DNA of 64,000 nucleotides from assembly GCA_016794505.1 (NCBI GenBank), contig JAEUJZ010000074.1:49061-113060 (forward strand), in the 5' to 3' direction. The translations under genes and the position numbers were made by a program. Positions within the stretch are counted from its first letter, which is position 1. Every line of letters starts with the position of its first letter. The notes beneath the pieces were generated by a model that had not been told where the DNA came from, did no database searches, and worked only from the letters and a program-made list of their open reading frames with translations. The stretch is from Myxococcales bacterium (GTDB lineage Bacteria; Myxococcota_A; Polyangia; Palsa-1104; JAEUJZ01). Shown here in pieces: positions 10,546 through 58,484 of the stretch.

Positions 10546-12681
10546 ATGACACCCCCAAGCCCAGCCATCACCGTCCGCATCGTCGGCGCGACCGATGTCG
10601 GGCTGATTCGCGAGCACAACGAGGACAACTTCACCGTCCTCAACCTTGAAACCGGCGAAATCGACTTCTCGCAAGGCCGAGAGCTGCCGCTGTCTAGTCA
10701 GGGCGCTCTTCTCGTGGTCTGCGATGGCATGGGCGGCGCCGCGGCTGGCGAAGTGGCCTCGCACATGGCCGTCGAGGTCATCCGTCGCGAACTAGGCCCC
10801 AAGCTGGCCTTGGATGCGCCCCCAAGTCCTACCGCAGGCGGGAACAGCGCGTCCCCAGCCAGTGATGCGCCGAGCAGCGCCGACAAGTCCACCGGCCTCA
10901 AGGATGGCGAAAAGACGGGCGATGGCTTGAACCCAGTGTCTGCTGCGCCCGCTGAAAAAGAGGCAGCACCCGCTGAGGCTGAGACGGCAGAAAAGGCCGA
11001 AAGTCCGCCGAAAGCCGCCGAGTCAAAGGACGTACCGACCAGCGAGGCCCCGCCGCTGGCTGCAGAAAAAAATACCGCCGCGGACCCGGCCCGCGCCGAA
11101 GGCCCGCAGAGTCGCCCGCCAGCGGAGGCAGCGCCAGCGACTAGCGCAGCCGCGATGGCGACGGGAACCAGCCCGGCCCCGTCTGAGCTCAGCGGCCCCC
11201 TGAGCGAAGCCCAGCTACACGGCTTGGCCCGCAAGCTACGGCAAGCGGGTCAGCGCGCAAACCAAGAGATCTATGAGGCCGCCTGCGCCGACATCAGCAA
11301 GGCCGGCATGGGCACGACGCTGACCTGTCTTTTGCTCTTGCGCTCGCACGTCATCGTGGGCCAAGTCGGCGACAGTCGGGCGTATCTTTGGCGCAAAGGC
11401 CGACTGACGCAGATCACGCACGATCAGTCGCTGGTCAATCAGCTTCTTGAGAGCGGTCAAATCACGCCCGAGCAGGCCAAGCTCTTCGAACACTCGAACG
11501 TCATCTTGCAAGCGCTTGGCGTGCAGGAAGATGTCGAAGTCGTGCTGTCCACCGAGACCGTGCGGCGTGGCGACCGTCTGATGCTGTGTTCTGACGGCTT
11601 GGTCGGCGTCGTCAGCGATGAAGAGATCCAAGAAGTCCTGACGCAGTGCGAGCACATCGACGAAGCCGTACGCCGCTTGATCGAGTTGGCTCGGGCCGGG
11701 GGTGGCCCCGACAACATCACAGTCATCGTCGCGCAGGTCGATGGCGATGGGGCGCCGGCTGCGGCCGAGACCGAGCTTGCTGAGTATCGCGTGTTGTATC
11801 TCGATGGCGAAAAGCCGCCCGAGCGACGCATGTGGGGCTCGGAATATGCGTTCATGGCCCAGACATCGGGGGCGCGCGATGTCGTGGGCAGCGCAGCGAC
11901 GGCGCAGCCGATCTCGTCGCGCCTGTCGATCATCTCGATGGCCGCAGTATTCGCGCTGCTGATTCTGGGTGTGCTGGGCGGCCTATTGTATCAGCCTCGA
12001 CGCCCGGTCACGCCGGGTAGCAACGGCATCGGCCCAGCGCCAAGCCCGCAGCCCGCCTTGCCGCCCCCTGTGGTTCCATCGCCGCCGCTGCCGCCGACTG
12101 GGCCAAGCACGGCCGTAGCGACCAGCAGCAGCCCGGATGCCGGGGTTGGCGTGGCGGCCGCAGCGCTCGACGCAGCGGCTGTGCAGCCAACCAGCGCGGC
12201 GAGTGTCGATGCCGGATCGCAGGATGCATCGGCAGCCCTTGCGCACGAGGCGGGGGAAGAAGACGCCCGTCCCAGCGATACCCCCGAAGCAGAAAAAGCC
12301 ACCAAGCCCGGTAAGAAGAAAAATAGACCGCCAAAGAAGAAGGTCGCGGACGAACCGACCGAAGCTCCTGCTGCCACGGGCCCGGCCACCGCTCCCTCCG
12401 AAGTAACGCCTGCGCTTGCGCCTGCTTCAGCACCGACCACTCCGCCGACGACCGGAACAACGGGAGCGACCGGAGCAACGGGAGCGACCGGAGCAACGGG
12501 AGCGACCGGAGCGACCGGAGCGAGCGACAAACAAGCCGCGGAGAAACCGGGAACCGAAAAGACACCACCGCCTGCGACAGACAAGCCGGCGGTTGAGAAA
12601 CCAGCGGTTGAAAAGCCCACGCCTGAAAAGCCCGCGCCTGAAAAGCCCGCAACAAGCCCACCGCCCGCTTCGGTTCCCTAA
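10546..12681 (+). CDS. PP2C-family Ser/Thr phosphatase with a long low-complexity insert, a transmembrane segment and a Pro/Ala/Thr-rich repeat tail
   Basis: PP2C motifs are present (VGLIREHNEDNF, LLVVCDGMGGAAAGEVAS, GGPDNITVIVAQV). After the catalytic domain comes a hydrophobic helix (LSIISMAAVFALLILGVLGGLL). The tail carries proline-rich PPVVPSPPLPPTGP, TGATGATGATGATGATGATGA and EKPAVEKPAVEKPTPEKPAPEKPAT repeats. Confidence 0.8.
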   Translation: MTPPSPAITVRIVGATDVGLIREHNEDNFTVLNLETGEIDFSQGRELPLSSQGALLVVCDGMGGAAAGEVASHMAVEVIRRELGPKLALDAPPSPTAGGNSASPASDAPSSADKSTGLKDGEKTGDGLNPVSAAPAEKEAAPAEAETAEKAESPPKAAESKDVPTSEAPPLAAEKNTAADPARAEGPQSRPPAEAAPATSAAAMATGTSPAPSELSGPLSEAQLHGLARKLRQAGQRANQEIYEAACADISKAGMGTTLTCLLLLRSHVIVGQVGDSRAYLWRKGRLTQITHDQSLVNQLLESGQITPEQAKLFEHSNVILQALGVQEDVEVVLSTETVRRGDRLMLCSDGLVGVVSDEEIQEVLTQCEHIDEAVRRLIELARAGGGPDNITVIVAQVDGDGAPAAAETELAEYRVLYLDGEKPPERRMWGSEYAFMAQTSGARDVVGSAATAQPISSRLSIISMAAVFALLILGVLGGLLYQPRRPVTPGSNGIGPAPSPQPALPPPVVPSPPLPPTGPSTAVATSSSPDAGVGVAAAALDAAAVQPTSAASVDAGSQDASAALAHEAGEEDARPSDTPEAEKATKPGKKKNRPPKKKVADEPTEAPAATGPATAPSEVTPALAPASAPTTPPTTGTTGATGATGATGATGATGATGASDKQAAEKPGTEKTPPPATDKPAVEKPAVEKPTPEKPAPEKPATSPPPASVP
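12451..12528 (+). repeat. In-frame coding tandem repeat (about 18-bp unit, ggagcgaccggagcaacg and variants) encoding (TGA)n within the PP2C phosphatase tail
   Basis: The repeat is read directly from the sequence. It is followed by AVEKPAVEKP and PEKPAPEKP peptide repeats at about 12586-12650. Confidence 0.8.
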
Positions 12682-12775
12682 CGCGAGGGGCCTGAGCTTG
12701 CTTCAGCTACAGGCCCTTGCTGCCGGAATCCCGACGTCCCGTGCCGATTCTGTATGCGATTCTTGGGAGTATCCA

Positions 12776-12866
12776 CAGACATTCCCGAGACATTCCTAAT
12801 AGATCCCTACAATATTCCCAATACACCCCTGCGATATTCCTAATATACTCCTAATATATTCCTAAG
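12776..12866. promoter_or_regulatory. AT-rich island with about 6 direct repeats of A(T/C)ATTCC(T/C)AAT upstream of the FGE-lipoprotein gene
   Basis: The motifs acattcccgag, acattcctaatag, atattcccaatac, atattcctaatat, atactcctaatat and atattcctaag are spaced about 11-14 bp apart. The island is strongly AT-rich relative to its surroundings. An RBS (GGAAGATAGAGGatacATG) follows. Confidence 0.4.
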
Positions 12867-12904
12867 CTTATCATCACAGAACAAGCAAGGAAGATAGAGG
12901 ATAC

Positions 12905-13822
12905 ATGCGTTCGTTCCTTTTGGGGCTCTGTCTATTGGGGATGCTGGCATGTGGTGACAGCGACACGGAAAGCCCAGCCTGCACCAGTGACGAAAGCTGT
13001 CTTTCGGGCGATGCCGTGCGCTGCGAAGCGGGGATGTGCAAAAAGCCGATCTGCCCCAGCGGTGCGCGCTATGTCCCAGGTGGGCGTTATCGTCGTGGCT
13101 GCGCCGCGATGTCCGAAGACTGCGAGCCCAGCGCCCAGCCCCTGCATGTGGTCACGATCAGCAACGGCTTCTGCCTGGCTGAAACGGAGACAACGGTGGC
13201 TGAATACCGTCGCTGTTTGGCACGTGGTAGCTGCCCGGCTCCTCCGGCTCCTGAGACGCTGCAGAGCCTGCGCTGTTCGCCGGATCGCGCGACTTGGACC
13301 GTGGATGCGCAGGGTGATGAGACGCTGCCGATGAGCTGCCTTTTGTGGTCCGAAGCCGCCGCCTTCTGCGCCGCCGCTGGGGGTCGCTTGCCCACGGAAG
13401 CCGAGTGGGAAAGAGCCGCTCGCGGTCGAGATGAGCGACCGTTTCCATGGGGACGCATTGCGGCCGTCAGCTGCGATCAAGGCGCGAACTTCGCAGGCCT
13501 GGGTTGCAGCGAGCTTCCTTGGCCAGCCACAACCAGCGATCGCGACGGCTCGATGCAGCGTGGCGCTTTTGGCCAGCTTGATCTCGGCGGCAACCTGTCC
13601 GAGTGGGTGGCGGACTTCTTCGATGCCACGGCGTATGCCCGCTGTGGCTCGGCCTGCACCGATCCCAGCGGCCCCCCCCAAGGCGAGGTCCGCGTGCGCC
13701 GCGGCGGCACATTCCTAAGTCCGCTCTCTGAGTTGCGCTCGTTCGCGCGGGAATTTCATCGGCCACAGGGACCCCGATCAGACCTGCTCGGCGTCCGCTG
13801 CGCCTTTGCTGCGGCGCGCTAG
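12905..13822 (+). CDS. Formylglycine-generating-enzyme (FGE-sulfatase/SUMF1) domain lipoprotein
   Basis: The N-terminus has a lipobox (LLGMLACGDS). FGE-sulfatase signatures are present (RVVTISNGFCLAETETTVAEYRRC, LPTEAEWERAARG, GNLSEWVADFF, RVRRGGTF, LGVRCA). Confidence 0.75.
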   Translation: MRSFLLGLCLLGMLACGDSDTESPACTSDESCLSGDAVRCEAGMCKKPICPSGARYVPGGRYRRGCAAMSEDCEPSAQPLHVVTISNGFCLAETETTVAEYRRCLARGSCPAPPAPETLQSLRCSPDRATWTVDAQGDETLPMSCLLWSEAAAFCAAAGGRLPTEAEWERAARGRDERPFPWGRIAAVSCDQGANFAGLGCSELPWPATTSDRDGSMQRGAFGQLDLGGNLSEWVADFFDATAYARCGSACTDPSGPPQGEVRVRRGGTFLSPLSELRSFAREFHRPQGPRSDLLGVRCAFAAAR

Positions 13823-13905: not shown

Positions 13906-15246
13906 ATGTCACGTCTCGCTCTTACGCTTCGCTTTGGTGTAGCGCTTGTTGCACTCCTCACTCTGCCTTGGCTGGGCCGAGCACACGCCGGCCCATGTCC
14001 AAACTTGGCAATCATCGTCGACCGCTCGGGCTCGATGCTCGACAACGTGGCGGGCATGCCGCCGATGGCTGGCGAGCTATCGCGCTGGCAGATCGCCAAG
14101 AACGCCATCACCACCCTCGTCTCGCAGTACGACGGCAAGCTGCCGATCGGCATCTCATACTTCCCGCGGGCCGGCAGTAGCTGCGGCACCAGCAGCTTCA
14201 GCGTGAACCCTGGCTATGGCACCAGGCAATCGATCTTGCAGTCTCTCGACAACCCGCAAGTGATCCCGGTTACGACGGCCCTGACCCCAACGTGCGGAGC
14301 CATCGATGCCGTAGCAGCCGATCCAGCCATGAAGGATGCCGGCCGCGGCCAGTACATCTTGTTGGTGACAGATGGAGCACCGCGCTGCACGAACTCAGTC
14401 AACTGCACCTGCGATGCCTGCAACTCGCTGGGCGCGGTGTTCGCAACCATCGAGTCTGTGCGCTTGGCCAAGATGCAGTCACCCAGCATCCACACGTTTG
14501 TCGTCGGCTTCGGCGGCAGCTTGGGCACGACGGAAAAGCAGAACCTAAATGACATGGCCAAAGAAGGCGGCGAACCCAACCCCGATCCCGCTTATGACTA
14601 CTATCCCGCCGAGACCGAGGCGGCGCTGCTGATGCAGCTCGATCGCATCATCCGTTCGATCACAGGTGGAGGCGACGCGGGTCCAGGCAGCGTTCTGTGC
14701 GACGACTCCTGCTATACGAATGGCTGCCCTGAAGGCCAGGTGTGCGTACAGGCGACGTGCCGGGGCAATCCCTGTGACAGCCAGACCTGCAGCAACGGCG
14801 AGTACTGCTATTCCGACGGCGTGACTGCATCCTGCGTCGCCCCTTGCACCGTCAGCTGCAGCGCCGGCAGTCGCTGCGTCCGCGGTACGTGTGTGGCCGA
14901 CCCCTGCGGCACGCCGTGCGCGTCCAGCCGAACGTGCGACCCGGCCACCAAGCAGTGCCAGCTGGATCCAGCATGTAGCGGCATCACCTGCAAGGCCGCG
15001 CAGTCTTGTCAGGCCGGCAAGTGCATCGATGATCCCTGCCTGTATACCCGCTGCCCGCAGGGCACTGCGTGCGTTCAATTTGAAGGCACGTGTCTGGCCG
15101 TGACCGACGGCACAATTTCGCGCGGTTGCAGCTGTCAGCTACACGGAGAGCCCACGCATAGCGCATGGGCCGCCCTGCTCGCACCGCTGCTGCTGCTCAG
15201 CGCAGCCCTGTATCGCCGCCGCCGCACATCTTCCCTGCTCTCCTAG
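13906..15246 (+). CDS. Secreted von Willebrand factor A domain protein with Cys-rich repeats and a MYXO-CTERM-type C-terminal sorting signal
   Basis: A signal peptide is followed by a vWA core with a MIDAS-like DRSGSM motif. About 8 Cys-rich CxxGxxC repeats follow. The C-terminus reads GCSCQLHG..AWAALLAPLLLLSAALYRRRRTS, which is the pattern of the MYXO-CTERM protein-sorting domain. Confidence 0.75.
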   Translation: MSRLALTLRFGVALVALLTLPWLGRAHAGPCPNLAIIVDRSGSMLDNVAGMPPMAGELSRWQIAKNAITTLVSQYDGKLPIGISYFPRAGSSCGTSSFSVNPGYGTRQSILQSLDNPQVIPVTTALTPTCGAIDAVAADPAMKDAGRGQYILLVTDGAPRCTNSVNCTCDACNSLGAVFATIESVRLAKMQSPSIHTFVVGFGGSLGTTEKQNLNDMAKEGGEPNPDPAYDYYPAETEAALLMQLDRIIRSITGGGDAGPGSVLCDDSCYTNGCPEGQVCVQATCRGNPCDSQTCSNGEYCYSDGVTASCVAPCTVSCSAGSRCVRGTCVADPCGTPCASSRTCDPATKQCQLDPACSGITCKAAQSCQAGKCIDDPCLYTRCPQGTACVQFEGTCLAVTDGTISRGCSCQLHGEPTHSAWAALLAPLLLLSAALYRRRRTSSLLS

Positions 15247-15439
15247 CCTCGCTTCCCCGCAAACTTGGCGCTGGACGCGCCATTGCCCGCAGATTCTGTG
15301 CGCTTGGGACGGACTCACTCCGCCATCGAACACTCTCTGACAGAGTGATACGATGACAAAGAGAGACAGGTGTCTTGCGGCTGCCGGCCGGCCCCCAGGA
15401 TGGACCTGTCGCCAACCCCCTGCACTTAGGAGAACTGCC

Positions 15440-17215
15440 ATGTTGCGCAAGACGCTTATCGGCCTTGGCCTTGGAATGAGCGCGCTCGTCGGGGTGTCCT
15501 GCAATTCCGTCATCACGTCGGGAGAAGGAACGTGCCCGCCAGAGCAAACAAACTGCGACCCTCAAAACCCCGGTGGCATGACGCCCACCGAGATGACAAC
15601 CGGCGTCGGTCCAGGCGGCGGCGGTGGCGGCGGTGGCACCGTTCCCTTTGATCCCAAGGGGGACGGGAGCATCGGTGTCTCTGTCGATCCCAATGGCAAC
15701 ATCATCCTGGACCCAACGGCCGGCACCAGCACGCAGTCCTCGGTGATCTGGGTTGCCAACAGCGGCGACGGCACGGTGTCCAAGATCGACACGCGCACGC
15801 GCAAGCAGCTGGCTCGCTATAAGACCTTGCCGGGCACCGTCAACTCGGACCCATCCCGCACCACGGTCAGCTTGGGCGGCGACGTGGCAGTCGCCAACCG
15901 CTCGTGGACCAACGGCGCCGACGGAAACAATGGCTCGGTGATCAAGATCGCCGGGGATAAGGGCAACTGCGTCGATCGCAACGGCAACGGCCGCATCGAC
16001 ACGTACGAAGGCGAGGCAACGACGATCCCGGCTCCGTTCAACACCTGGACCAATGGCCAGCCTAGCCCCGACGAGTGCGTGCTGTGGCTGACCATGACCA
16101 ACACAAACTCCGCCGGCACCGTCATGATGACGCGGCCGCGCGCCGCCGGTTGGGACGGTGAGATCACAGACACGAGCCTGAGCCAATATCTATATGTTGG
16201 TCTGTTCGACACCAGCGAAGTGCTGCGCCTGGATGGGGCCACGGGCAGGATCGTCAAGCGCATCAACGTCGCGCCGACGCAGCCCTATGGCTTGGCCCTC
16301 GACAAGAACGGTAACGTCTGGGTCATGGGCCGCGAGAGCAACACCGGCACTCTGGCCAAGATCGAGGTCAAAAACCCCACACAGCCAGACCTGGTGAAGC
16401 GCTACACGCCGGCTGCTGGCTGCAACTATGGCATCACGGTCGACCCACGCGGCTTGGTCTATCACGCGTTCAACTCGTGCCTGGCACGCTTCGATCCGGT
16501 AGCCGAAAAGTATGAGTACCTGACGGTGCCGGGCTCGAATCAGCTGCGCGGCCTGGGCATCGACAACAAGTACAACCTGTGGGTCGCAGACAGCAACGTC
16601 GGCGTCCACCACGTCGATGTCAGCGCCCTGCCGCCGGCCACCGGTACCTCGATGGTGCATCGCCAATCGATCGCGACGGCGGGCACCAATGCCGGCGTTG
16701 GCATCGACTTCGACAACAAGACCTGGGTGGTCTCGTACAACGGCAATAGCTCGCACGCATACCAGATCAATCCGGGTGCGCAGGCTGGCCAAGCCACGCT
16801 TGAGTTCACGTACAACAGCGCGAACACTGGCGCGCTGAACAACTCCTATATGTACTCGGACATGACGGGGTATCAGCTGCGCAACGCCTCGCGCGCGGGG
16901 ACGTTCCGCACGACGTTCCAGGGTTGCCCGAATGGCAACACGACGTGGACCAACTTGAACTACAGCGTGTCGGCTCCGCGTGGCACCAAGGTGTCGATCC
17001 GCTACCGTGGCGCTGCCACGACCGCCGAGCTAACCAACTCGCCGTGGACGACGGCCTCTGGCACCTCACCCGTACCGATCAGCGTCACCGTCCCGATGGG
17101 CCAGACGCCGCGCTATCTGCAGGTTGAAGTCACGATGACCTCTGTCGATGCCAGCCTGACGCCGGTCCTTTCGGGTCTGTCCGCGGGTTACACCTGCATG
17201 CAGATCATTGGCTAG
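15440..17215 (+). CDS. Lipoprotein with a Gly-rich linker and YVTN/NHL-like beta-propeller repeats
   Basis: An RBS (AGGAGAActgccATG) precedes the start. The N-terminus has a lipobox (LVGVSCNS). A poly-Gly stretch (GGGGGGGG) is followed by repeated propeller-like units (VANSGDGTVSKID, VAVANRSW, LDKNGNVWVMG, IDNKYNLWVADSN). Confidence 0.6.
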   Translation: MLRKTLIGLGLGMSALVGVSCNSVITSGEGTCPPEQTNCDPQNPGGMTPTEMTTGVGPGGGGGGGGTVPFDPKGDGSIGVSVDPNGNIILDPTAGTSTQSSVIWVANSGDGTVSKIDTRTRKQLARYKTLPGTVNSDPSRTTVSLGGDVAVANRSWTNGADGNNGSVIKIAGDKGNCVDRNGNGRIDTYEGEATTIPAPFNTWTNGQPSPDECVLWLTMTNTNSAGTVMMTRPRAAGWDGEITDTSLSQYLYVGLFDTSEVLRLDGATGRIVKRINVAPTQPYGLALDKNGNVWVMGRESNTGTLAKIEVKNPTQPDLVKRYTPAAGCNYGITVDPRGLVYHAFNSCLARFDPVAEKYEYLTVPGSNQLRGLGIDNKYNLWVADSNVGVHHVDVSALPPATGTSMVHRQSIATAGTNAGVGIDFDNKTWVVSYNGNSSHAYQINPGAQAGQATLEFTYNSANTGALNNSYMYSDMTGYQLRNASRAGTFRTTFQGCPNGNTTWTNLNYSVSAPRGTKVSIRYRGAATTAELTNSPWTTASGTSPVPISVTVPMGQTPRYLQVEVTMTSVDASLTPVLSGLSAGYTCMQIIG

Positions 17216-40736: not shown

Positions 40737-42020
40737 ATGGCTATCGGATCTTCATGTGACGTAGACGTTGTGATTGCCGGCGGTGGACCGGCGGGCTCGA
40801 CTACCGCGAGCTTTCTGCGCCGCCACGGCAGAAGCGTGCTGGTGCTCGAACGCGAGCAGTTCCCGCGCTTCCATATTGGGGAATCGCTTCTCCCCTGCGC
40901 GGGCGATATCTGGGACGAGCTGGGCTTAAAAGAAGAGATGCATCGTCGCTTCATCGTCAAGCCCGCGGCTCGCTTCATCCACAACGAGTCGGGCGCGCAG
41001 TTCACGTACTACTTCGCCAACGCCATCCGTCCCGACTACCCCTACGCGTACGAAGTTCAGCGCGATGAGTTCGATCACATGCTCCTTGAGCGCTCGCGGG
41101 AGCTTGGGGCTGACGTGCGTTACCTGAGCGAGGTGCGCGATATCGATATCCAAGCCGATGGCGTACGCACCGAGGTACAGCCAAGCGAGGGGGCGCCATA
41201 CGAAGTGCGCAGTCAGGTCTTTGTCGACGCCACCGGCCGAGACACCCTGCTTGGCAACCGCTTGGGCCTAAAAGTCGCAGACGAGCTCGTCACGACCAAC
41301 GCTGCTTGCTTCACGCACTTCCGCAACTGCAACCGTCAGACCGGCAGCGACGAAGGAAATATCACCATCGTCCTCTTCGACGGTGGTTGGTGGTGGTTCA
41401 TCCCATTTAAGGGGGACATCACATCGGTTGGCTGCGTGCTTCAGAAGCATTTCTCCTTGGCGCATCGCGGTGCATCACCCGAAGAGATGTTCAACGCAGC
41501 GCTGGCTGTCACGCCGTCGATGCAGGACCTTTTGCGCGGAGCCGTCCGCATTCGTCCAGTCGGTACCACCGGCAACTGGTCGTATCGCTGCCGCCAGTTC
41601 TACGGCGATCGCTTCCTTCTAGTCGGAGACGCGGCAGGCTTCATCGATCCACTGTTCTCAACCGGCGTATTGATGGCGGCCTACGGTGGACGCTATGCAG
41701 CGCAAGCCATCGACGCAGCCCTTGCCGCATCGGACTTCTCGGCGAACCGTTTCGCGGAGTATCAGCAGCAAGCGCTGCAGGGTGCCGATCTCTTCAAGAA
41801 GCTCGTCCATGAGTTCTATGGTGAGAGCCTGCGCAAGCTGCTCGTCCACTCGGCTGCCCATCCCGCCACCTGCGCTGTGATCACCAGCATGCTGGCTGGC
41901 GATGTCTATCGACCCGCCCTCTGGCAGTCGGTGGTCCGCTCTGGCTTTTCGCGCGACATCCCCGAAAGCGGGCTGCCCTCTCGCGCTGAGCGACGCGGCA
42001 AACCCAACGATCTCACCTAG
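40737..42020 (+). CDS. FAD-dependent oxidoreductase of the flavin-dependent halogenase type
   Basis: An N-terminal FAD Rossmann motif reads VVIAGGGPAGSTTA. The GWxWxIP-type motif is present (GGWWWFIPF) and the FxxPxxSxG motif is present (FIDPLFSTG). Both are signatures of flavin-dependent halogenases. The geranylgeranyl-reductase-like fold is consistent. Confidence 0.65.
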   Translation: MAIGSSCDVDVVIAGGGPAGSTTASFLRRHGRSVLVLEREQFPRFHIGESLLPCAGDIWDELGLKEEMHRRFIVKPAARFIHNESGAQFTYYFANAIRPDYPYAYEVQRDEFDHMLLERSRELGADVRYLSEVRDIDIQADGVRTEVQPSEGAPYEVRSQVFVDATGRDTLLGNRLGLKVADELVTTNAACFTHFRNCNRQTGSDEGNITIVLFDGGWWWFIPFKGDITSVGCVLQKHFSLAHRGASPEEMFNAALAVTPSMQDLLRGAVRIRPVGTTGNWSYRCRQFYGDRFLLVGDAAGFIDPLFSTGVLMAAYGGRYAAQAIDAALAASDFSANRFAEYQQQALQGADLFKKLVHEFYGESLRKLLVHSAAHPATCAVITSMLAGDVYRPALWQSVVRSGFSRDIPESGLPSRAERRGKPNDLT

Positions 42021-49427: not shown

Positions 49428-50024
49428 CTAAAAAAGCTGGAAGGCGCCGCCCACGGACAGCCCGACAAAGCCATAAACCGAGGGACCCGTGGAATATGTG
49501 AGATAGCTCAGCGCGACTTCGGGACCGACGGTCAATTCGTACTTGGGTTGGCGATAGGCGACGAAGTCCACGCCCAGATTGCCTTGTACTCCGGCGCGAT
49601 GGCGAATCCCGGTGCCAATGCCAAGCAGCGCGCCGCCTGGCTGTTCGGCCACAGCGGCAATCGACTCTTCGTGCTGATGGATAAACGATACGCTGATGCG
49701 GCCATATACTTTGGAAGACAGATAGCCGCCCCCCATAAGCCCAATAAGAATCGCCGTAAGCTGGCGCTCATCGATCCGCGCGTACCCGAGCCGCCCCTGC
49801 GCAAAGAGCGCAATCGTGCGGAATAGGCGCAAGCCCAGAAGCAGGCTGCCGGTACCTAGCGGATCGCCTTGCCACGTCGTACCTCCCGCCATGAGCCCGA
49901 CGGAAACAAGGAGCTGTCCGCGCGGTTTGCGCGGCGCGGGACTGGCAGGCGTTTCGGCGGCTTGCGGCGGAGGTGCAGGCGCGACCTCTGCCGGTGGATT
50001 CTGGATCGCGGGGTCAAGCTGCAT
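49428..50024 (-). CDS. Hypothetical outer-membrane beta-barrel-like protein
   Basis: The C-terminal half has alternating hydrophobic/Gly-rich strands and ends in an aromatic residue (GGAFQLF). The start is uncertain: MQLDP at 50024 versus the longer ORF-track start, which would run antisense through the FGE gene. Confidence 0.4.
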   Translation of the reverse strand: MQLDPAIQNPPAEVAPAPPPQAAETPASPAPRKPRGQLLVSVGLMAGGTTWQGDPLGTGSLLLGLRLFRTIALFAQGRLGYARIDERQLTAILIGLMGGGYLSSKVYGRISVSFIHQHEESIAAVAEQPGGALLGIGTGIRHRAGVQGNLGVDFVAYRQPKYELTVGPEVALSYLTYSTGPSVYGFVGLSVGGAFQLF

Positions 50025-50103
50025 GCCCGCAGGTATACGCCATAGACGCCGGAAAGGCCGCGACAGAAATTCGCCGATCCGTGGGGATAAAGTCGTGTGC
50101 CGC

Positions 50104-51009
50104 ATGCGCATCCCACGTAAGCCCAATGAGTCGCGCCGCGTTCGCTCTGAAGCCCCGCCCGAAACGCAGCGACCGCATGGCAAGATAGCGACCGTGCGTG
50201 TCCCCCGGAATTCCTCTGCCGCGCAGGCTGGCGAGCGGGCCATCGAGCTGGTCGATATCGACGCCGGCTCGGTGGTGCTGCGCGACGATCGCATCGGCCG
50301 CATCTGGCGCGTCGAGATCCAGCCCTTTCGCATCGCTCGATGCCCCGTCACCTGCGCGCAGTATCGCGAGCTCCTGGGCCTTGCGCCCTCGACCGACAAC
50401 GACGCCCAACCCCAGAAGGACAGCGACGCTCTGCCCGTCGTCGAGGTCTCGTGGTACGAGGCCATCGCCTTCTGCAACGCGCTGTCGGCTCAGTGCGGGC
50501 TGCCCCCCTGTTACACCCTCTCTGACGAGGGCACGCAGGTCACGTTTTCCACGGAAAGCGACGGCTATCGCTTGCCCAGCGAGGCCGAGTGGCAGTACGC
50601 CTGCCAAGCTGGCGACGAGCGCGTGCGCTATGGCGAGCTAGACGCCATCGCCTGGTACCGCGAAAACTCGGGCGGCCAGCGCCACCCCGTCGGGCAGAAG
50701 CAGCCCAACCGCTGGGGCCTGCACGACCTGCTCGGCAACGTCTGGGAGTGGTGCTGGGACCTGTACGATCCGCAGGTCTATGGCGAGTACCGCGTCTTTC
50801 GCGGGGGCGGCTGGGCAGACGCTCACTGGGGCTGCACCGCCGCCAGCCGACGTCGCAGCCATCCGACCTTCCGCATCGACGATCTCGGCTTCCGCCTGGC
50901 GCGCAGCGGGCCGGCCAGCCCGGCGCAGCGCAGCGCAGAAATCAGCGAAGCCAACGACGAGCCCAGCGAAGGAACGCGCCCACAACCGACCCGCAAGGCG
51001 AAGAGCTGA
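50104..51009 (+). CDS. Formylglycine-generating-enzyme (FGE-sulfatase/SUMF1) domain protein
   Basis: FGE signatures are present (RIARCPVTCAQYRELLG, LPSEAEWQYACQAG, GNVWEWCWDLY, RVFRGGGWAD, LGFRLAR). The start is set at MRIPRK (50104). Confidence 0.75.
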   Translation: MRIPRKPNESRRVRSEAPPETQRPHGKIATVRVPRNSSAAQAGERAIELVDIDAGSVVLRDDRIGRIWRVEIQPFRIARCPVTCAQYRELLGLAPSTDNDAQPQKDSDALPVVEVSWYEAIAFCNALSAQCGLPPCYTLSDEGTQVTFSTESDGYRLPSEAEWQYACQAGDERVRYGELDAIAWYRENSGGQRHPVGQKQPNRWGLHDLLGNVWEWCWDLYDPQVYGEYRVFRGGGWADAHWGCTAASRRRSHPTFRIDDLGFRLARSGPASPAQRSAEISEANDEPSEGTRPQPTRKAKS

Positions 51010-51090
51010 CCCATATCGAGTAAATTGATATATAAATATCTCAAATATATTCCGTATTAAACAACATAAATAATAACGATATGGATCCGT
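51010..51090. promoter_or_regulatory. Strongly AT-rich 80-bp spacer between the convergent FGE and LanB genes (likely bidirectional termination region)
   Basis: The sequence reads cccatatcgagtaaattgatatataaatatctcaaatatattccgtattaaacaacataaataataacgatatgg. It contains a TATATTCCGTATT element similar to the ATATTCC repeats at 12.8 kb. Confidence 0.4.
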
Positions 51091-54000
51091 TCATCGGCTG
51101 GGCTTTGCGGAACGAGCCAGGACCGCCTCGGCTGCTCGCTGCGCCAGACACAGAACCTGATGTTCCAAGCGATGATTGCCGAGCAGGCGGTTGCAGTGCA
51201 TGTGAAACAGCGACGCCAAGATGTCGTGAAGCGGACGGCTCAGCGCCGATTGTGCGGCGGCGGCGTGATAGGTCGCGGCAACGCGCTGCACAGACTGCTC
51301 GTACGCCGCAAAGGCCGGGGCGATGTCTCGGTGGTGCAGACACGCCAGGTCTGGCGGCGGCGAGGCAGAGAGGCCCTCGCAGGAGCCCACGAGATCGTGA
51401 AGCGGCTTGGCATAGCGACGGTATGTCGCGTCCAGCGCGCTCTTGTGCAGCGGGTCGTGGGCCGAGCGCAGCGAACGATCAGCTTCGCGCTGTTCGCGCA
51501 GCGCCCAAAAGAGCTGCCGCCTCTGCGCCAGATCAAACCCAAAGGCGCGATACAGCGTGTGGAGTGCCCGCACCGGCACGAGGATCCGCACGTCCCGCTC
51601 GTGATCCAGCTGATCGCGGTAGTACGCGGCAAGCACGCGCAGGCACAAGCGACTGTCGGCGGTAAACAACTGCTCAGCGGCTGCGATCAGCGCCGGACCG
51701 CCATAGCGATCGACCTCTCGCTCGTACGTCGCGACCTCAAAGTGGGCCAGCGCACCGTCGTGTAGCTCGGCAGCGATGCGCTCGGACAGCCGATCCAGAA
51801 GCTGCAGGGACGACAGGCGGCAAGGACGCAGGCGCAGGCGCAAGTGGGCTTCGGGATCGGCATAGCGCACGAAGTGAAACTCGCTGAGCAGATCCTGCCG
51901 CTCGCACTCGTTGATCAGTCGCGCGACAAAGCGACCCAGAAGATGGTCATCGAAGAACGCTCGCGTCGCCTCTTCGCTGCCCAGCCCAGCACCGTAATAC
52001 AGCTTCAGGTACAGCCACGGCGAGCCCGGCGGAAAGACGTGGGCCTTGCGCAGCGCCGACGTCTCGCAGAGCCCACCTGACGGCGGCCAGGTGCTGAATG
52101 CAGAAGCCGCAGCAGGGGTCGGCTCGGCCTGTGATCCCGACGCAGGCTTGCGAGCGCGGTTGGGATGCCTCTGCGCCCGGCCCGGCCCGGCATCCTCAGA
52201 CTGCGAGGGCAGGCGCAGCTGCACGACGGACTCTGCGACAAGCGGCCCGTCTGGACCGACGACGATGGAGCCTTCGTGCAGGAATTCTTCCTGAACCCAG
52301 AACCGCTGATCTTCGACCATGCTGGCCAGCTCGAATAGAGCCATGGGGCCGTCGAGATCCACGGCGTTGTGTTCCGCGTCTCCAAGCCGGACGATGCGCG
52401 GAACGCCGTAGCGCGCACGCCAGGCGGTGATCAGCGAGCGCAGCGCGACGTCGTCACGATCTTTGCGCGGCTGCGCCAGCACGTGCTGCAGGTTCGGTGG
52501 CAGAAACCAGCTCTGCGGTCGCAAGATGACGTCGCCGATGCAGATGCGCGCCGTGCGAGTCGGTAGCTGCTGGCTGTGGATGGGCAGCCCCCACACCATG
52601 CTCTGTGGGTCGAGAGCCTGCAGGACCTGGACAAGCGCAGAGAAGGCTTCCGGCACCAGCGCCGACCCCTGGCGCGCCACGACAGGCACACCGCGACGTT
52701 CCCAAAACAGCATGGGACCCAGCGGGCTCATGGTCACGCTCAGCTCAGAAATGGGAATCTGGAACTCGGCGGATACGCTGGGCTGGCCATCGGCCACGAT
52801 CTGATAGCGAAAGGTCATCGGGCGCTGGCTGAGATCACGCAAGCGGCCCCCACCCCCGCTGGTGATCTCAGCGAGGATGCAGGGGGCAAGATCCTGTTCT
52901 TGCTGTCGCCATAGATCGCGCTGCTGCCGCAGCATGGGGTCGTCGCGATCCCAGTGCAGAAAACGGTTTCCATATCGCCCCACCTGCGGCGTGAATCCCG
53001 AAGCAATCACGCGCGGCCGTCCCTTCAGTACCACGAAGCGCAGCATCCCTTCGACGATCGTCGGGCGCTGACTGAACGGCGGCACATGCTCGCGCAGTGC
53101 GTTGGCAAGATCAGAGAGCGGAAGCTCGATGTGTTCGAAGCCGTGCAGGTCGGCATCGAACAGCTTCTGCACCACGCAGCGATCCAACAGAGTCTGCTGT
53201 TGTGATGCAGTGGGCGCGAGCCGCTGTCCGTTGAAGAGTGGGCGCATATCGTCCAGGTTCCCGCCCTTGGCGATGCGAAAGACGACGTCCATAAGCGGCA
53301 GCCGACTGCCCATCGTGCCCTCGGCAAACAGGTCGCAGATGGCTGCGTAGTACGGCGAGCGCACGAGCTGCCACAAAAACGGCGTACGCGCGATGCAGTC
53401 GGCGACTTGTTGCACCAAGTCTGCGGGCAGTCCGCCTGCCTGAATGGACACGCGCAAGACCGCTTGCTGATTCGTGCCCGCGCGCAAGGCTTTGCTGCGT
53501 CCATCCGGTTGCTCGCTGCGAGTCGCAAGCCACGGGTGGCCCTCAAGGGCATCCCACGCACGATCAAACGAGGGATCAGCAACCGGCAGCGCACGATCCG
53601 TGATCTGAAGCAGAGCCTGACTGTCGGCTGCCAGCCCGGACAAAGCCGGCTCGCCTTCCGCCCACGCATGCAGCGTGCGTTCGGGACGCTCGCCAAGACT
53701 TGCAGGCTGCAAGCTGTCGAGCAAGACGCCGCTTTCGAGAAGATCCAAGACATACGCATCCGCGGTTTCGCGAGTCGTGTCTGGGGCTTCGGACTGCAGA
53801 CGCTCTGTCAGCTCAGTCCAGCTCCAGACCTGGTTGGAAGCCGCGCGGGACAGGATGGCTCGCAGGGGCTTGTCGAGACGCAGACAAGCGACGCGGTAAC
53901 GCGGAGTCTGGGTCTTTAGTCCATCGGGTTGTTGATCGGTGAAGTAGCAGAGAACGCCGCCGCGCTGCATGGCGCTCTCGTTGAAGCGAAAGCGCATGCG

Positions 54001-54474
54001 CTCGCGCACTGCGGAGTGCTTGACGAGGTCGCGCGTGATGGCCAGCACGCTTCCCCACGAAGGCATGACATGCACGCGAGCCTCGGCGATCGGCGCGATG
54101 CGAAGCTGCGTGAAGGGCCCGAGGGTCGCCGCAGCGATTCCGGCAAGAAGCTGCAGCGGCGTGCTGCGCGTGGTGACGCGTGCGAAATACCGATGCAACG
54201 TGATCAGAAGATCTTCGCTGAGTGGCAGTCCGCTCACGATCTGGCGCTGCATCGCAGCCCACATCGCCGGGCTCTTCGCACGCAGCGCGCGGCGCAGGAG
54301 CGGTGACTGAAAGAAGTGCATCAAGTCCTGCTGCCAGTCGCTTGACTGCGAAAGCGACAGAAAGCGTGCGGACGAAGCAAGCGGCACCCGCAGCAGAGCA
54401 ACCGGCAGAACGCTGGCCTGCTGCGATGGCTTCGCAGCCAGCGGATCCGCCCCAGGCTCAACGCGCCGCTTCAT
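51091..54474 (-). CDS. Full-length LanB-type (class I lanthipeptide) dehydratase
   Basis: The roughly 1127-aa protein has a large N-terminal Lant_dehydr_N-like region. The C-terminal SpaB_C/thiopeptide-type elimination domain signature is present (WLYLKLYYGAG...FHFVRYADPEAHLRLRLRP). An RBS (GCAGGAGcgagcgATG) lies upstream of MKRR (54474). Confidence 0.8.
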   Translation of the reverse strand: MKRRVEPGADPLAAKPSQQASVLPVALLRVPLASSARFLSLSQSSDWQQDLMHFFQSPLLRRALRAKSPAMWAAMQRQIVSGLPLSEDLLITLHRYFARVTTRSTPLQLLAGIAAATLGPFTQLRIAPIAEARVHVMPSWGSVLAITRDLVKHSAVRERMRFRFNESAMQRGGVLCYFTDQQPDGLKTQTPRYRVACLRLDKPLRAILSRAASNQVWSWTELTERLQSEAPDTTRETADAYVLDLLESGVLLDSLQPASLGERPERTLHAWAEGEPALSGLAADSQALLQITDRALPVADPSFDRAWDALEGHPWLATRSEQPDGRSKALRAGTNQQAVLRVSIQAGGLPADLVQQVADCIARTPFLWQLVRSPYYAAICDLFAEGTMGSRLPLMDVVFRIAKGGNLDDMRPLFNGQRLAPTASQQQTLLDRCVVQKLFDADLHGFEHIELPLSDLANALREHVPPFSQRPTIVEGMLRFVVLKGRPRVIASGFTPQVGRYGNRFLHWDRDDPMLRQQRDLWRQQEQDLAPCILAEITSGGGGRLRDLSQRPMTFRYQIVADGQPSVSAEFQIPISELSVTMSPLGPMLFWERRGVPVVARQGSALVPEAFSALVQVLQALDPQSMVWGLPIHSQQLPTRTARICIGDVILRPQSWFLPPNLQHVLAQPRKDRDDVALRSLITAWRARYGVPRIVRLGDAEHNAVDLDGPMALFELASMVEDQRFWVQEEFLHEGSIVVGPDGPLVAESVVQLRLPSQSEDAGPGRAQRHPNRARKPASGSQAEPTPAAASAFSTWPPSGGLCETSALRKAHVFPPGSPWLYLKLYYGAGLGSEEATRAFFDDHLLGRFVARLINECERQDLLSEFHFVRYADPEAHLRLRLRPCRLSSLQLLDRLSERIAAELHDGALAHFEVATYEREVDRYGGPALIAAAEQLFTADSRLCLRVLAAYYRDQLDHERDVRILVPVRALHTLYRAFGFDLAQRRQLFWALREQREADRSLRSAHDPLHKSALDATYRRYAKPLHDLVGSCEGLSASPPPDLACLHHRDIAPAFAAYEQSVQRVAATYHAAAAQSALSRPLHDILASLFHMHCNRLLGNHRLEHQVLCLAQRAAEAVLARSAKPSR

Positions 54475-54687
54475 CGCTCGCTCCTGCACGTTGGGATGGC
54501 GTCGAGCGGACGACGTGGATGCCGAGCAAAAGCGAGAACAGGAAGACCCACGAAGCTCATGCGATCACGAACGGGATTGCAGAAAAAAACCGACATCATG
54601 AAGCGCTAGGTGGTGACGACAAGCACGGGCCTCAGGCAGCCGTGCCCTTCGGCCGAGGAGCAAAGAGAAGTCGCGGTCGACCGTGAC

Positions 54688-54912
54688 TCAGACGCTGTAT
54701 CCCTTGGTGGCGATTCGGCTCACCCCCAACACACCAGCCGCCTCGGCAGTAATGTTGCTGCCGGGAGCCACCTGGATCGCGTCGTAGTTCAGGTACAGCG
54801 AGTATCCGCCTTTGAGGTTCGTGCGGACCTTCAGACCGGTGTTTCCTTCGTCATCATCGTCAGCAACGTTTTCAGACTCAGGGTTCGGATTGGCAGTGGC
54901 TTGAGTATTCTG
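54688..54912 (-). CDS. Candidate RiPP precursor peptide (75 aa, Cys-free)
   Basis: A canonical RBS precedes the start (AAGGAGcgactATG). The codon usage is lower in GC than the flanking genes. The sequence is MQNTQATANPNPESENVADDDDEGNTGLKVRTNLKGG|YSLYLNYDAIQVAPGSNITAEAAGVLGVSRIATKGYSV. The leader is acidic and ends in a double-Gly-like KGG. The core is rich in Ser, Thr and Tyr and has no Cys. The ORF lies directly upstream of lanB and downstream of the export cassette. Confidence 0.5.
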   Translation of the reverse strand, partial: QNTQATANPNPESENVADDDDEGNTGLKVRTNLKGGYSLYLNYDAIQVAPGSNITAEAAGVLGVSRIATKGYSV

Positions 54913-55099
54913 CATAGTCGCTCCTTGGGTAGGAATGAACAGGCTTCGATCCAGAATGCCTTGTCCAGGATAGGACGCTGCGACTCGGATTCGTAGATGA
55001 TTTTCACGCGGATTTATCGTCGCTGAATAAGGAAATCGGAACGCAGGCTTAGCGCCGGCCCACCGACCCCAGATGCCCTGAACGAAGCGAGCGCAGGCG

Positions 55100-56335
55100 C
55101 TACTTAGGACGCACGTCCGATCGGTTTGCATCGGACTGCGACGACGAGCTGGCGGGTTCTTGGGCCAGGTGCTCAATGCGGCGACCCAAGCTGCGCAGGA
55201 CAAGCGTGGCGGGCGATACCTCTTCGACGGCGATCTCGACGGTACCGGGCAGTCCATGCTGGAACGGAATCAATGTGCGCGGATCGGACAGCGGGCTCGC
55301 TGAATGGGCCGGCAACAGATCCAGCTCGACGCGAACCGTGCCATCGCGTGGCTCGGCGGCGACTCGCGACACACGGGCCGGCACCGCACCATACTGCAGC
55401 CAAGGAAAGCCAGTCAGGCGAAGCTCGGCTCGCTGCTGTTCGCGCACGCGGCCGAGCGCGCTCGCCGGATCGAATTCCGCGACCAGAATGAAATCACCAC
55501 GCGGCAGCAGCGTCGCCAGCTTGCTGCCCTCAGAGACATATGCACCCACCTGCAGCGCCTGCACTTCACCGACGGTGCCGTCGGCTGGTGCGCGAATCGT
55601 ATGGCGAGCGATCTGCTGTTCAAGCTCGGCCACATTGGCCATCAGGGTGCGCTGCTCGCCTTGCAAAGAAGTCAGCTCGCGGCGCAGACCTTCGATCCGG
55701 GCTTCCCCGCTGCGCAGTCGCGTCTTGCGCTCGGTCAGCGAGCGTTTGACATCGAGTGACAGGGCCGCCGAGGACGCCTGTCGCATCTCGGCTGTGGCCA
55801 ACACGCGCTCCCTCTCCAACTGTGAAACAGCCCCAACCAGTGCGCCATAGCGCTGGGCTTCGCGCTCGGCCAGCTTGGCCCCGATGGCGGCCTCTTGACT
55901 GCGAGCTTTGGCCTGCTTGGCGGCTACTGCAGCAGCGGCTCCCTCGGCTTGCACCGCCCCGCGGGTCGCTCGCAGCTCACTCACCGTGGCTTGCACCTGT
56001 GGCTCGATGGCCTGCAGTCGCGCCTGCGCACTGGCGAGCCGCTGCTGCTCAACCAGTGAGTCGAGTACAAACAGCACATCCCCCTTCTTCACACTCTGCC
56101 CCAGTCGAATACTGACCGTGTCGATCTTTCCTGCGATGACCGAATGCACACTCAGCGATGCTCCGCGCACTTCCAGTCGCGTCTGCTTGCTGACTTCATA
56201 GATCGTCACGCGCGCCCCAAACAGCCACAGCGTCCACGCCAACGCCGCGACCAGCAGAGCAAGCAGACCCACGGCGGCCGCACGCCCGCTGTCCTTTTGC
56301 AGAGATCGCAGGGTATGGGGAAACGGCTGTGCCAT
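55100..56335 (-). CDS. HlyD-family periplasmic adaptor (membrane-fusion protein) of a peptide export system
   Basis: An N-terminal TM anchor (LLALLVAALAWTLWLF) is followed by a biotinyl/lipoyl-like hairpin (GKIDTVSIRLGQSVKKGDVLFVLD), a long coiled coil and a C-terminal beta domain. Confidence 0.8.
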   Translation of the reverse strand: MAQPFPHTLRSLQKDSGRAAAVGLLALLVAALAWTLWLFGARVTIYEVSKQTRLEVRGASLSVHSVIAGKIDTVSIRLGQSVKKGDVLFVLDSLVEQQRLASAQARLQAIEPQVQATVSELRATRGAVQAEGAAAAVAAKQAKARSQEAAIGAKLAEREAQRYGALVGAVSQLERERVLATAEMRQASSAALSLDVKRSLTERKTRLRSGEARIEGLRRELTSLQGEQRTLMANVAELEQQIARHTIRAPADGTVGEVQALQVGAYVSEGSKLATLLPRGDFILVAEFDPASALGRVREQQRAELRLTGFPWLQYGAVPARVSRVAAEPRDGTVRVELDLLPAHSASPLSDPRTLIPFQHGLPGTVEIAVEEVSPATLVLRSLGRRIEHLAQEPASSSSQSDANRSDVRPK

Positions 56336-56358
56336 GACGTATCGAAATCCGCTGAACG

Positions 56359-58440: not shown

Positions 58441-58484
58441 GTCGGCAGCCTTGCGCAGCGGCCACAGGACAGATGCGAGATTGC

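Follow-up and report, generated by a model that had tools for sequence, protein, structure and literature searches.

The 64,000-nt window analyzed here, which is the whole stretch of DNA under study, comes from an uncultured myxobacterial MAG lineage whose related records are labelled Myxococcales or Polyangia. It contains an 11-bp direct-repeat array on the plus strand at 12780-12867, where eight contiguous head-to-tail units span 88 bp in front of a gene for an FGE-sulfatase-domain lipoprotein. The repeat keeps its 11-bp phase, is conserved in a position-specific pattern and is associated with the same operon in a different lineage. The chances seem somewhat better than even that the array is an operator, predicted to consist of phased direct repeats for a direct-repeat-binding transcription factor. 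The motif is most likely previously undescribed, and the device itself is most likely of an ordinary regulatory kind.

The window has a GC content of 64.0%, which is lower than the "well above 65 %" given as background in the earlier note. Just two stretches have a 100-bp GC content below 45% (12744-12953 and 50962-51134), and the first of these, with a minimum 100-bp GC of 35%, holds the array. The earlier note had described this island as carrying a regularly spaced 11-bp motif before the FGE lipoprotein gene, and the repeat statistics below bear this out. The note had counted about six direct repeats; the repeat is real, but the number of units is eight. The units start at 12780, 12791, 12802, 12813, 12824, 12835, 12846 and 12857, and in register they read CATTCCCGAGA, CATTCCTAATA, GATCCCTACAA, TATTCCCAATA, CACCCCTGCGA, TATTCCTAATA, TACTCCTAATA and TATTCCTAAGC. 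The consensus is TATTCCTAAGA, made up of a core A-Y-T-C-C-Y-A followed by about four variable bases, and the CC is invariant. Units 2, 4, 6, 7 and 8 are strong and units 3 and 5 are weak, resulting in a 22-bp super-period. TRF reports a period of 11 (6.7 copies, score 64) and a period of 22 (score 85) at 12792-12865, the latter because the weak units 3 and 5 alternate with strong ones. Compared with itself at lags of 11, 22 and 33, the array has self-identities of 0.573, 0.65 and 0.58, and for lag 11 the dinucleotide-shuffled expectation is 0.275 +/- 0.043 (z 6.9). Over lags of 5 to 30, none of 2000 shuffles equals the observed self-identity, which places the periodicity far outside what chance would give. 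The composition of the array is A28 C28 G6 T26 (39% GC), so that the plus strand is strongly G-poor and pyrimidine-rich.

Upstream of the array lies a PP2C phosphatase gene (10546-12681, plus strand), and directly 3' of its stop codon is a GC-rich hairpin at 12683-12720 on the plus strand (-27.3 kcal/mol, z -3.58). None of 200 shuffles is as stable. The hairpin, which is without a U tract, is probably a transcription stop, and the genes downstream would therefore need their own promoter. The block GTATGCGATTCTTGGGAGTA follows at 12750-12771 (plus strand) and contains one inverted unit, TCTTGGGAGTA, at 12761-12771. This unit reads TACTCCCAAGA on the minus strand, with a motif score of 15.8 bits there, lies eight bases 5' of the array, and makes inverted repeats together with its units. 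The spacer from the array to the start codon (12868-12904, plus strand) is 37 nt long and holds purine-rich ribosome-binding sequences, which were read from the sequence as AAGGAAG at 12887-12893 and GAGGA at 12897-12901. Small ORFs in this island are short and overlapping, and none has support. A DnaA-box-like 9-mer, GTATCCACA, at 12768-12776 is rejected as it is not kept in the sister species, and a motif match inside the gene at 13710 is accounted for by conserved GTFLS codons. The part of the PP2C gene for the low-complexity C-terminal tail contains in-frame repeats of 18 bp (4.2 copies, 12449-12523) and 15 bp (2.8 copies, 12609-12650). Most metagenome contigs of both the window species and its sister species end 400-450 bp 5' of the FGE gene, which is the position of these tail repeats.

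The first gene 3' of the array encodes the FGE-sulfatase-domain lipoprotein (12905-13822, plus strand, 305 aa; PF03781, E 1e-34), with its ATG at 12905, 37 nt after the end of the array. Its N-terminus, MRSFLLGLCLLGMLACG, was read from the sequence as a signal peptide with the lipobox LAC. A VWA-domain protein gene (13906-15246, plus strand; marginal Pfam VWA score) lies 83 nt 3' of the FGE gene on the same strand and is the partner of FGE in all relatives; the two are probably co-transcribed in one unit. A 620-aa ORF at 15353-17215 on the plus strand, whose matches are sub-threshold beta-propeller repeats alone (SBBP, NHL), is syntenic with a 591-aa gene in two related loci (L002 and L022) and is possibly the third gene of this unit. 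The wider neighbourhood encodes an FHA/zinc-ribbon protein, a Ser/Thr kinase, two sigma-54 activators, an aminotransferase and a Kelch protein. Among the window ORFs scanned against Pfam, none has a transposase, integrase, rep or par domain. The window also has a second promoter-proximal direct-repeat array, a perfect, GC-rich 13-bp tandem repeat of TTTCTGCCGCGCG (3.9 copies) at 1546-1596. It lies about 75 nt 5' of the ATG (1671) of an N-acetylmuramoyl-L-alanine amidase / Golvesin_C gene, in a divergent region shared with an EamA transporter gene. A tryptophan-halogenase-like gene is present at 40737-42020.

The array is identical in all ten same-species metagenome contigs that encode an identical FGE protein, and these contigs differ only in a C/T polymorphism at 12774, in the gap that separates unit 1 from the inverted unit. 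A sister species, with an FGE protein 95% identical and the gene order of the window, has an array of six units (TCTTCCCAAGA, TACTCCTAAAA, TAATCCTGTAG, TATTCCCAGTA, TACTCCTACGA and TATTCCTAAGC), and this copy number agrees in six of six sister-species contigs. The change between eight and six units is a length difference of exactly 22 bp, which preserves the helical phase. The repeat thus appears stable within populations, and to change by whole two-unit steps between species. A phase-variable contingency repeat was considered and rejected, as the units are degenerate and the copy number is constant in the 10 + 6 contigs. Four-fold synonymous sites differ by 17-20% between the two species. The aligned units differ at 16 of 66 positions (24%, hand count), none of them in the CC core, suggesting that the spacer positions drift at about the neutral rate while the core is spared. 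The inverted unit is identical in both species, as is the stretch CTCTTGGGAGTAT, and the 37-nt spacer is partly conserved, with a 7-nt indel.

More distant relatives place the array in the history of an operon. At loci with an FGE protein of 59-83% identity (L028/29, L030, L223-227, L229, L230 and L232-234), a B12-binding radical-SAM gene ends 1-18 nt before the start of the FGE gene and faces a second, divergent radical-SAM gene. The downstream order VWA, kinase, aminotransferase, Kelch is shared, and these loci are therefore the same locus as that of the window. Both radical-SAM genes are missing from the 64-kb window. The two close species supply 14 units, which were made into a motif matrix, and 343 kb of sequence, consisting of the window and related myxobacterial loci, was scanned with it for in-phase pairs. 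Arrays occur at three places: the window locus, the sister locus and L028:797-851 (the same in L029). The L028/L029 relative has about 80% protein identity and carries the orthologous operon. Its five in-phase units, AATTCCTAAGA, GATTCCGAATA, CATTCCGAATT, CTCTCCGATGA and GACTCCGATTT, lie in a 519-bp divergent region 5' of the rSAM-FGE-VWA operon, about 350 nt from the gene start. The sole significant local alignment between the intergenic regions of the window and L028 is the array itself, which aligns over 58 nt, ungapped and in phase (z 4.8).

Over the 19 units of the three lineages, the CC at positions 5-6 is present in 19/19, A2 and T4 each in 17/19 and A8 in 16/19, and positions 1, 3, 7, 9 and 10 vary. 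Unit scores range from 0.5 to 18.8 bits under leave-one-lineage-out scoring. The conservation statistics are weak (P of roughly 0.01-0.04), as no more than two or three independent lineages carry the array. The tandem array is absent from L013, L229, L230, L231 and L232, and it is therefore evolutionarily young or labile. Single matches of at least 8 bits on the gene strand are enriched upstream of the radical-SAM start (10 observed, 1.3 expected), and remain so without L028 (6 observed, 1.0 expected, P about 0.001), with mononucleotide shuffles as controls, two of the lineages related and some matches overlapping ribosome-binding sites. In L013, the order is PP2C-FGE-VWA with a GC-rich spacer and zero motif matches. 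The block GTATGCGATTCTTGGGAGTA resembles the sequence just 5' of the radical-SAM gene in L229 and L028 (local alignment z 3.4), which suggests that the intergenic region of the window descends from a radical-SAM leader and that the radical-SAM gene was deleted. A candidate radical-SAM remnant between the array and the ATG was rejected; the likeness consists of the 8-mer CAGAACAA and the ribosome-binding region, and the alignment is not significant.

Several other elements were observed in these relatives. L028:1040-1100 and L229:4535-4590 share an almost unchanged block of about 55 nt, GTTTAGRATGCACGATCGGAGTTGTGAATCAAGAASGGAGTRTGCGATTTTG. It lies 100-150 nt 5' of the B12-radical-SAM gene and matches nothing in Rfam; the block may represent a leader, a small ORF or a regulatory site. 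L013:200-250 has three copies of a GTTGCATGCG-like direct repeat before the FGE gene, and L230:4968-4997 has two copies of TCCCAAGAGGC, 15 bp apart, right before the radical-SAM start. At L231:2664-7461, a phage-type integrase gene and a series of small genes take the place of FGE after the radical-SAM gene, and a prophage or island appears to have inserted there.

The earlier note had read the repeat as an array of binding sites, and this reading fits the evidence best, given the CC invariant in 19/19 units and the in-phase array at the orthologous operon in a relative of about 80% identity. On this reading, a sequence-specific protein that binds direct repeats would find eight phased sites in the array, spaced by one turn of the helix. 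Such a protein would spread cooperatively from the strong units 2, 4, 6, 7 and 8 onto the weak units 3 and 5, and when bound would govern the promoter of the gene set (FGE lipoprotein, VWA and possibly beta-propeller) that starts 37 nt downstream. The 11-bp phase, the seven-base core with its loose four-base spacer, the alternation of strong and weak units, the 22-bp change in copy number and the location between a probable terminator and the first gene jointly point to a protein of this kind. Relatives have the B12-radical-SAM gene at the head of this operon, with the motif present upstream in one to five copies. The window lineage is without that gene, and there the motif forms a tandem array of 6-8 units directly before the FGE gene. 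Binding by a protein, the family of that protein, the position of the promoter and the direction of regulation are what we infer from this arrangement. No consensus sigma-70 promoter was detected, and nothing of the kind is conserved between the two species. This fits an activator-dependent promoter, as weak evidence. A search of 12640-13479 on both strands for the sigma-54 pattern TGGCACG-N4-TTGCW with up to 3 mismatches gave no match. A sigma-54 enhancer (UAS) for one of the two EBPs of the window is rejected, as there is no -24/-12 promoter in that stretch.

By analogy, an OmpR/PhoB-type winged-helix response regulator is the most likely class of binder, since the architecture of the array matches the multi-unit operators of such regulators. 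The PhoP operators of Streptomyces are made of 11-nt direct repeats with 7 conserved positions and up to 6-8 units; occupancy extends cooperatively from a conserved core to the poorly conserved units, and a unit of 10 nt is a poor binding site (PMC2275107). Like the PHO-box of Streptomyces PhoP and E. coli PhoB, the array has an 11-nt period with about seven conserved positions and four loose ones, in a form that comprises two to eight contiguous units, 'core' units with degenerate 'extension' units, near a gene start. Its repeats are contiguous and exactly 11 bp long, which would place the sites on one helix face. Each unit has a core of 6-7 nt and then 4-5 nt of variable spacer, and strong units occur among weak ones. 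The core AYTCCYA, however, differs from GTTCACC or CTGTCAT (PMC2275107), and the consensus TATTCCTAAGA is likewise unlike either. The array is also unlike a PHO-box in having no nearby cognate regulator gene and no link to phosphate. No OmpR-type regulator gene was found in the 64-kb window by tblastn with an approximate E. coli OmpR query, and the array motif matches neither the PHO-box nor another verifiable consensus.

Other direct-repeat systems share parts of this architecture. The parC site of R1 has ten 11-bp iterons bound by the ribbon-helix-helix protein ParR, at about one dimer per repeat with cooperative coating (PMC2241845). The array resembles parC in its tandem 11-bp direct repeats and in its probable position next to a promoter, but it is one block on a chromosome-like contig, whereas parC has two five-repeat blocks flanking the plasmid parMR promoter. 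A type II centromere (parC/ParR) is rejected because of the single cluster, the PP2C/FGE/VWA neighbours and the lack of par genes in the scanned ORFs. The heptads of the omega repressor are degenerate short boxes in direct and inverted orientation. The parH site of TP228, bound by ParG, has many degenerate short boxes with AT-rich spacers, both direct and inverted (PMC3130281). The window array is like these in having one inverted unit, but its period is 11 bp, compared with 7-8 bp in a plasmid partition context for ParG and omega. The inverted unit fits ribbon-helix-helix binders at least as well as winged-helix ones.

A likeness within the myxobacteria is the C box of Myxococcus xanthus, CAYYCCY, which belongs to C-signal-dependent developmental promoters. 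It occurs as a single copy near -49, with GAACA upstream, at FruA/MrpC-dependent promoters. Units 1, 2 and 5 presumably fit this C box exactly and most others fit AYYCCY, and the GAACA pentamer just 3' of the array resembles what we take to be the '5-bp element' of C-box promoters. Unlike the single-copy C box, the motif forms a tandem array here, and the host is an uncultured lineage rather than Myxococcus. The resemblance may be due to chance because the motif is low in information content.

Public collections were searched with a pattern of three in-phase AYTCCYA cores on an 11-bp period, which gave at least 120 metagenome matches and 72 viral loci. Some of the matches are high-GC contigs with arrays and flanking inverted units much like those of the window. 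The neighbours of the matches are unrelated (pgi, efp, hslU, mnmA, terminases and others), and two control patterns of equal composition match 60 and 52 viral loci compared with 72 for the real pattern. A cross-phylum AYTCCYA array family is rejected since the neighbours are unrelated and the control patterns almost as frequent; the matches reflect the commonness of 11-bp tandem repeats and define no family. The same commonness of arbitrary phased heptamer arrays (72, 60 and 52 loci) speaks for a neutral minisatellite, formed by slippage duplication in an intergenic region that was rearranged after the loss of the radical-SAM gene, and now decaying without a function. The divergence of the array (24%), which is no lower than that of synonymous sites (17-20%), the unit number that differs between lineages and the lack of the array in L013, L229, L230 and L232 point the same way. 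Nevertheless, such an origin is rather unlikely, given that the substitutions spare the CC core with position-specific conservation over 19 units, that an independent in-phase array lies upstream of the same operon in L028/L029, that further lineages have an excess of the motif in front of the operon and that the copy number is stable within populations. The choice of conserved positions also bears on whether the island is a non-specific AT-rich promoter element, either UP-like, flexible or curved DNA, or a pad for a nucleoid or AT-hook protein such as the CarD/HMGA-like proteins of myxobacteria. The best-conserved positions are C-C, not A/T, and the array of L028 still keeps TCC in an intergenic region of 55% GC. 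The AT stretches of the window array are interrupted by TpA steps and, as read from the sequence, contain no A-tracts of four or more, so classical phased-A-tract curvature is not expected. This element is unlikely, even though the array lies in one of two AT-rich islands in a 64% GC window, its units contain several -10-like hexamers (TATACT, TATATT and TAATAT), and the AT-hook protein CarD is known in Myxococcus.

The array could also act as RNA. Eight copies of an anti-Shine-Dalgarno-like CUCCU/UUCCU in the 5' leader would compete with the ribosome for the ribosome-binding site of the gene itself, or an antisense transcript would serve as a CsrB-like, multi-GGA sponge that titrates a CsrA-like protein. 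The G-poor, pyrimidine-rich plus strand and the eight AGGA/GGGA motifs on the minus strand would suit these forms, units 7-8 are paired to the ribosome-binding region in the minimum-energy fold, and with no promoter located the array could sit inside a 5' leader. We regard an RNA-level element of either form as improbable, however, since the sequence folds no better than shuffles (z -1.8, -1.2 and -1.0), the sister species does not keep the pairing of units with the ribosome-binding site, neither the 11-nt phasing nor the 22-bp indel has an obvious RNA rationale, and the L028 array is about 350 nt from the gene start. A search of Rfam up to E = 10 gave two chance-level matches, both outside the array, and CsrB/RsmZ-type or other described RNA families are rejected on the lack of an Rfam match and on the fold z of -1.0 to -1.8. 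If the RNA reading were true, it would be translational control of a kind not described in Myxococcota. The earlier note had offered, as an alternative, a degenerate remnant of a foreign element. Candidates would be the iterons or centromere of a plasmid, the end of a transposon, or a phage site. AT-rich DNA within a GC-rich genome would agree with this, as would the resemblance to the 11-bp and 22-bp iterons typical of plasmid parC sites and origins (PMC2241845), and both flanks differ between the window lineage and L028 despite the shared array. The alternative finds no sign of a mobile element to sustain it and is very improbable: the window ORFs scanned with Pfam contain no rep, par, transposase or integrase domains, plasmids gave zero matches and phages one spurious 33-nt match that falls outside the array, the sister species shares the order of the flanking genes, and the array goes with the same operon in different lineages. 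An iteron-type replication origin was rejected separately because the base period is 11 and not 22, there is no rep gene and the DnaA-like 9-mer is unconserved.

The second AT-rich island is not related to the first. The earlier note had seen a related element at 51010-51090 and argued that two islands with a shared core, both next to FGE paralogues, were unlikely to be random. This island (51010-51090, 81 bp, 26% GC) lies between the stop codons of convergent FGE-domain and LanB-type genes. It has no periodicity, and its best motif score of 3.8 bits is equalled by 59% of shuffles. The two islands share one 10-mer, AATATATTCC; the three overlapping shared 8-mers have a P of about 0.03 under shuffling, before allowing for hindsight. 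The two FGE genes are 26% identical and fall into different subfamilies. With no repeat, no motif match and distant paralogues, the proposed echo and shared core do not hold, and the two islands are unrelated. The L228 locus, whose homologue of the second FGE gene is 89% identical, is without both the second island and lanB. A 23-nt, 78%-complementary inverted repeat flanks the island at 50996-51099 and extends into both convergent 3' ends. The island may be a junction from the arrival of a lanthipeptide-type cluster, as its sequence context suggests. On the minus strand, 51091-61265 carries the gene for a LanB-type dehydratase (1132 aa) and, after it, HlyD-family, ABC and C39-peptidase-ABC transporter genes; judged by these genes, this myxobacterial MAG has a class I lanthipeptide-style cluster for modification and export. 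The family of the second FGE gene has proteins of about 230 aa with about 60% identity across Firmicutes, Proteobacteria and Actinobacteria. The identity of about 60% among Bacillus, Paenibacillus, Burkholderia, Streptomyces and Cystobacter is unusually high across phyla. Homologues cover the last 55-60% of the listed ORF (49816-51009), and the real length of the protein is probably about 240 aa.

The array does not overturn current understanding. If it is an operator, it provides a clean, information-rich motif, AYTCCYA on an 11-bp phase, for a myxobacterial regulator. It would also give a handle on the control of a conserved FGE-lipoprotein/VWA/weak-beta-propeller gene set, which sits in a Ser/Thr-kinase / PP2C / FHA signalling neighbourhood. 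The locus may furthermore illustrate the amplification of a regulatory site, from the 1-5 copies in relatives to an array of 6-8 units after the loss of the first gene of the operon.
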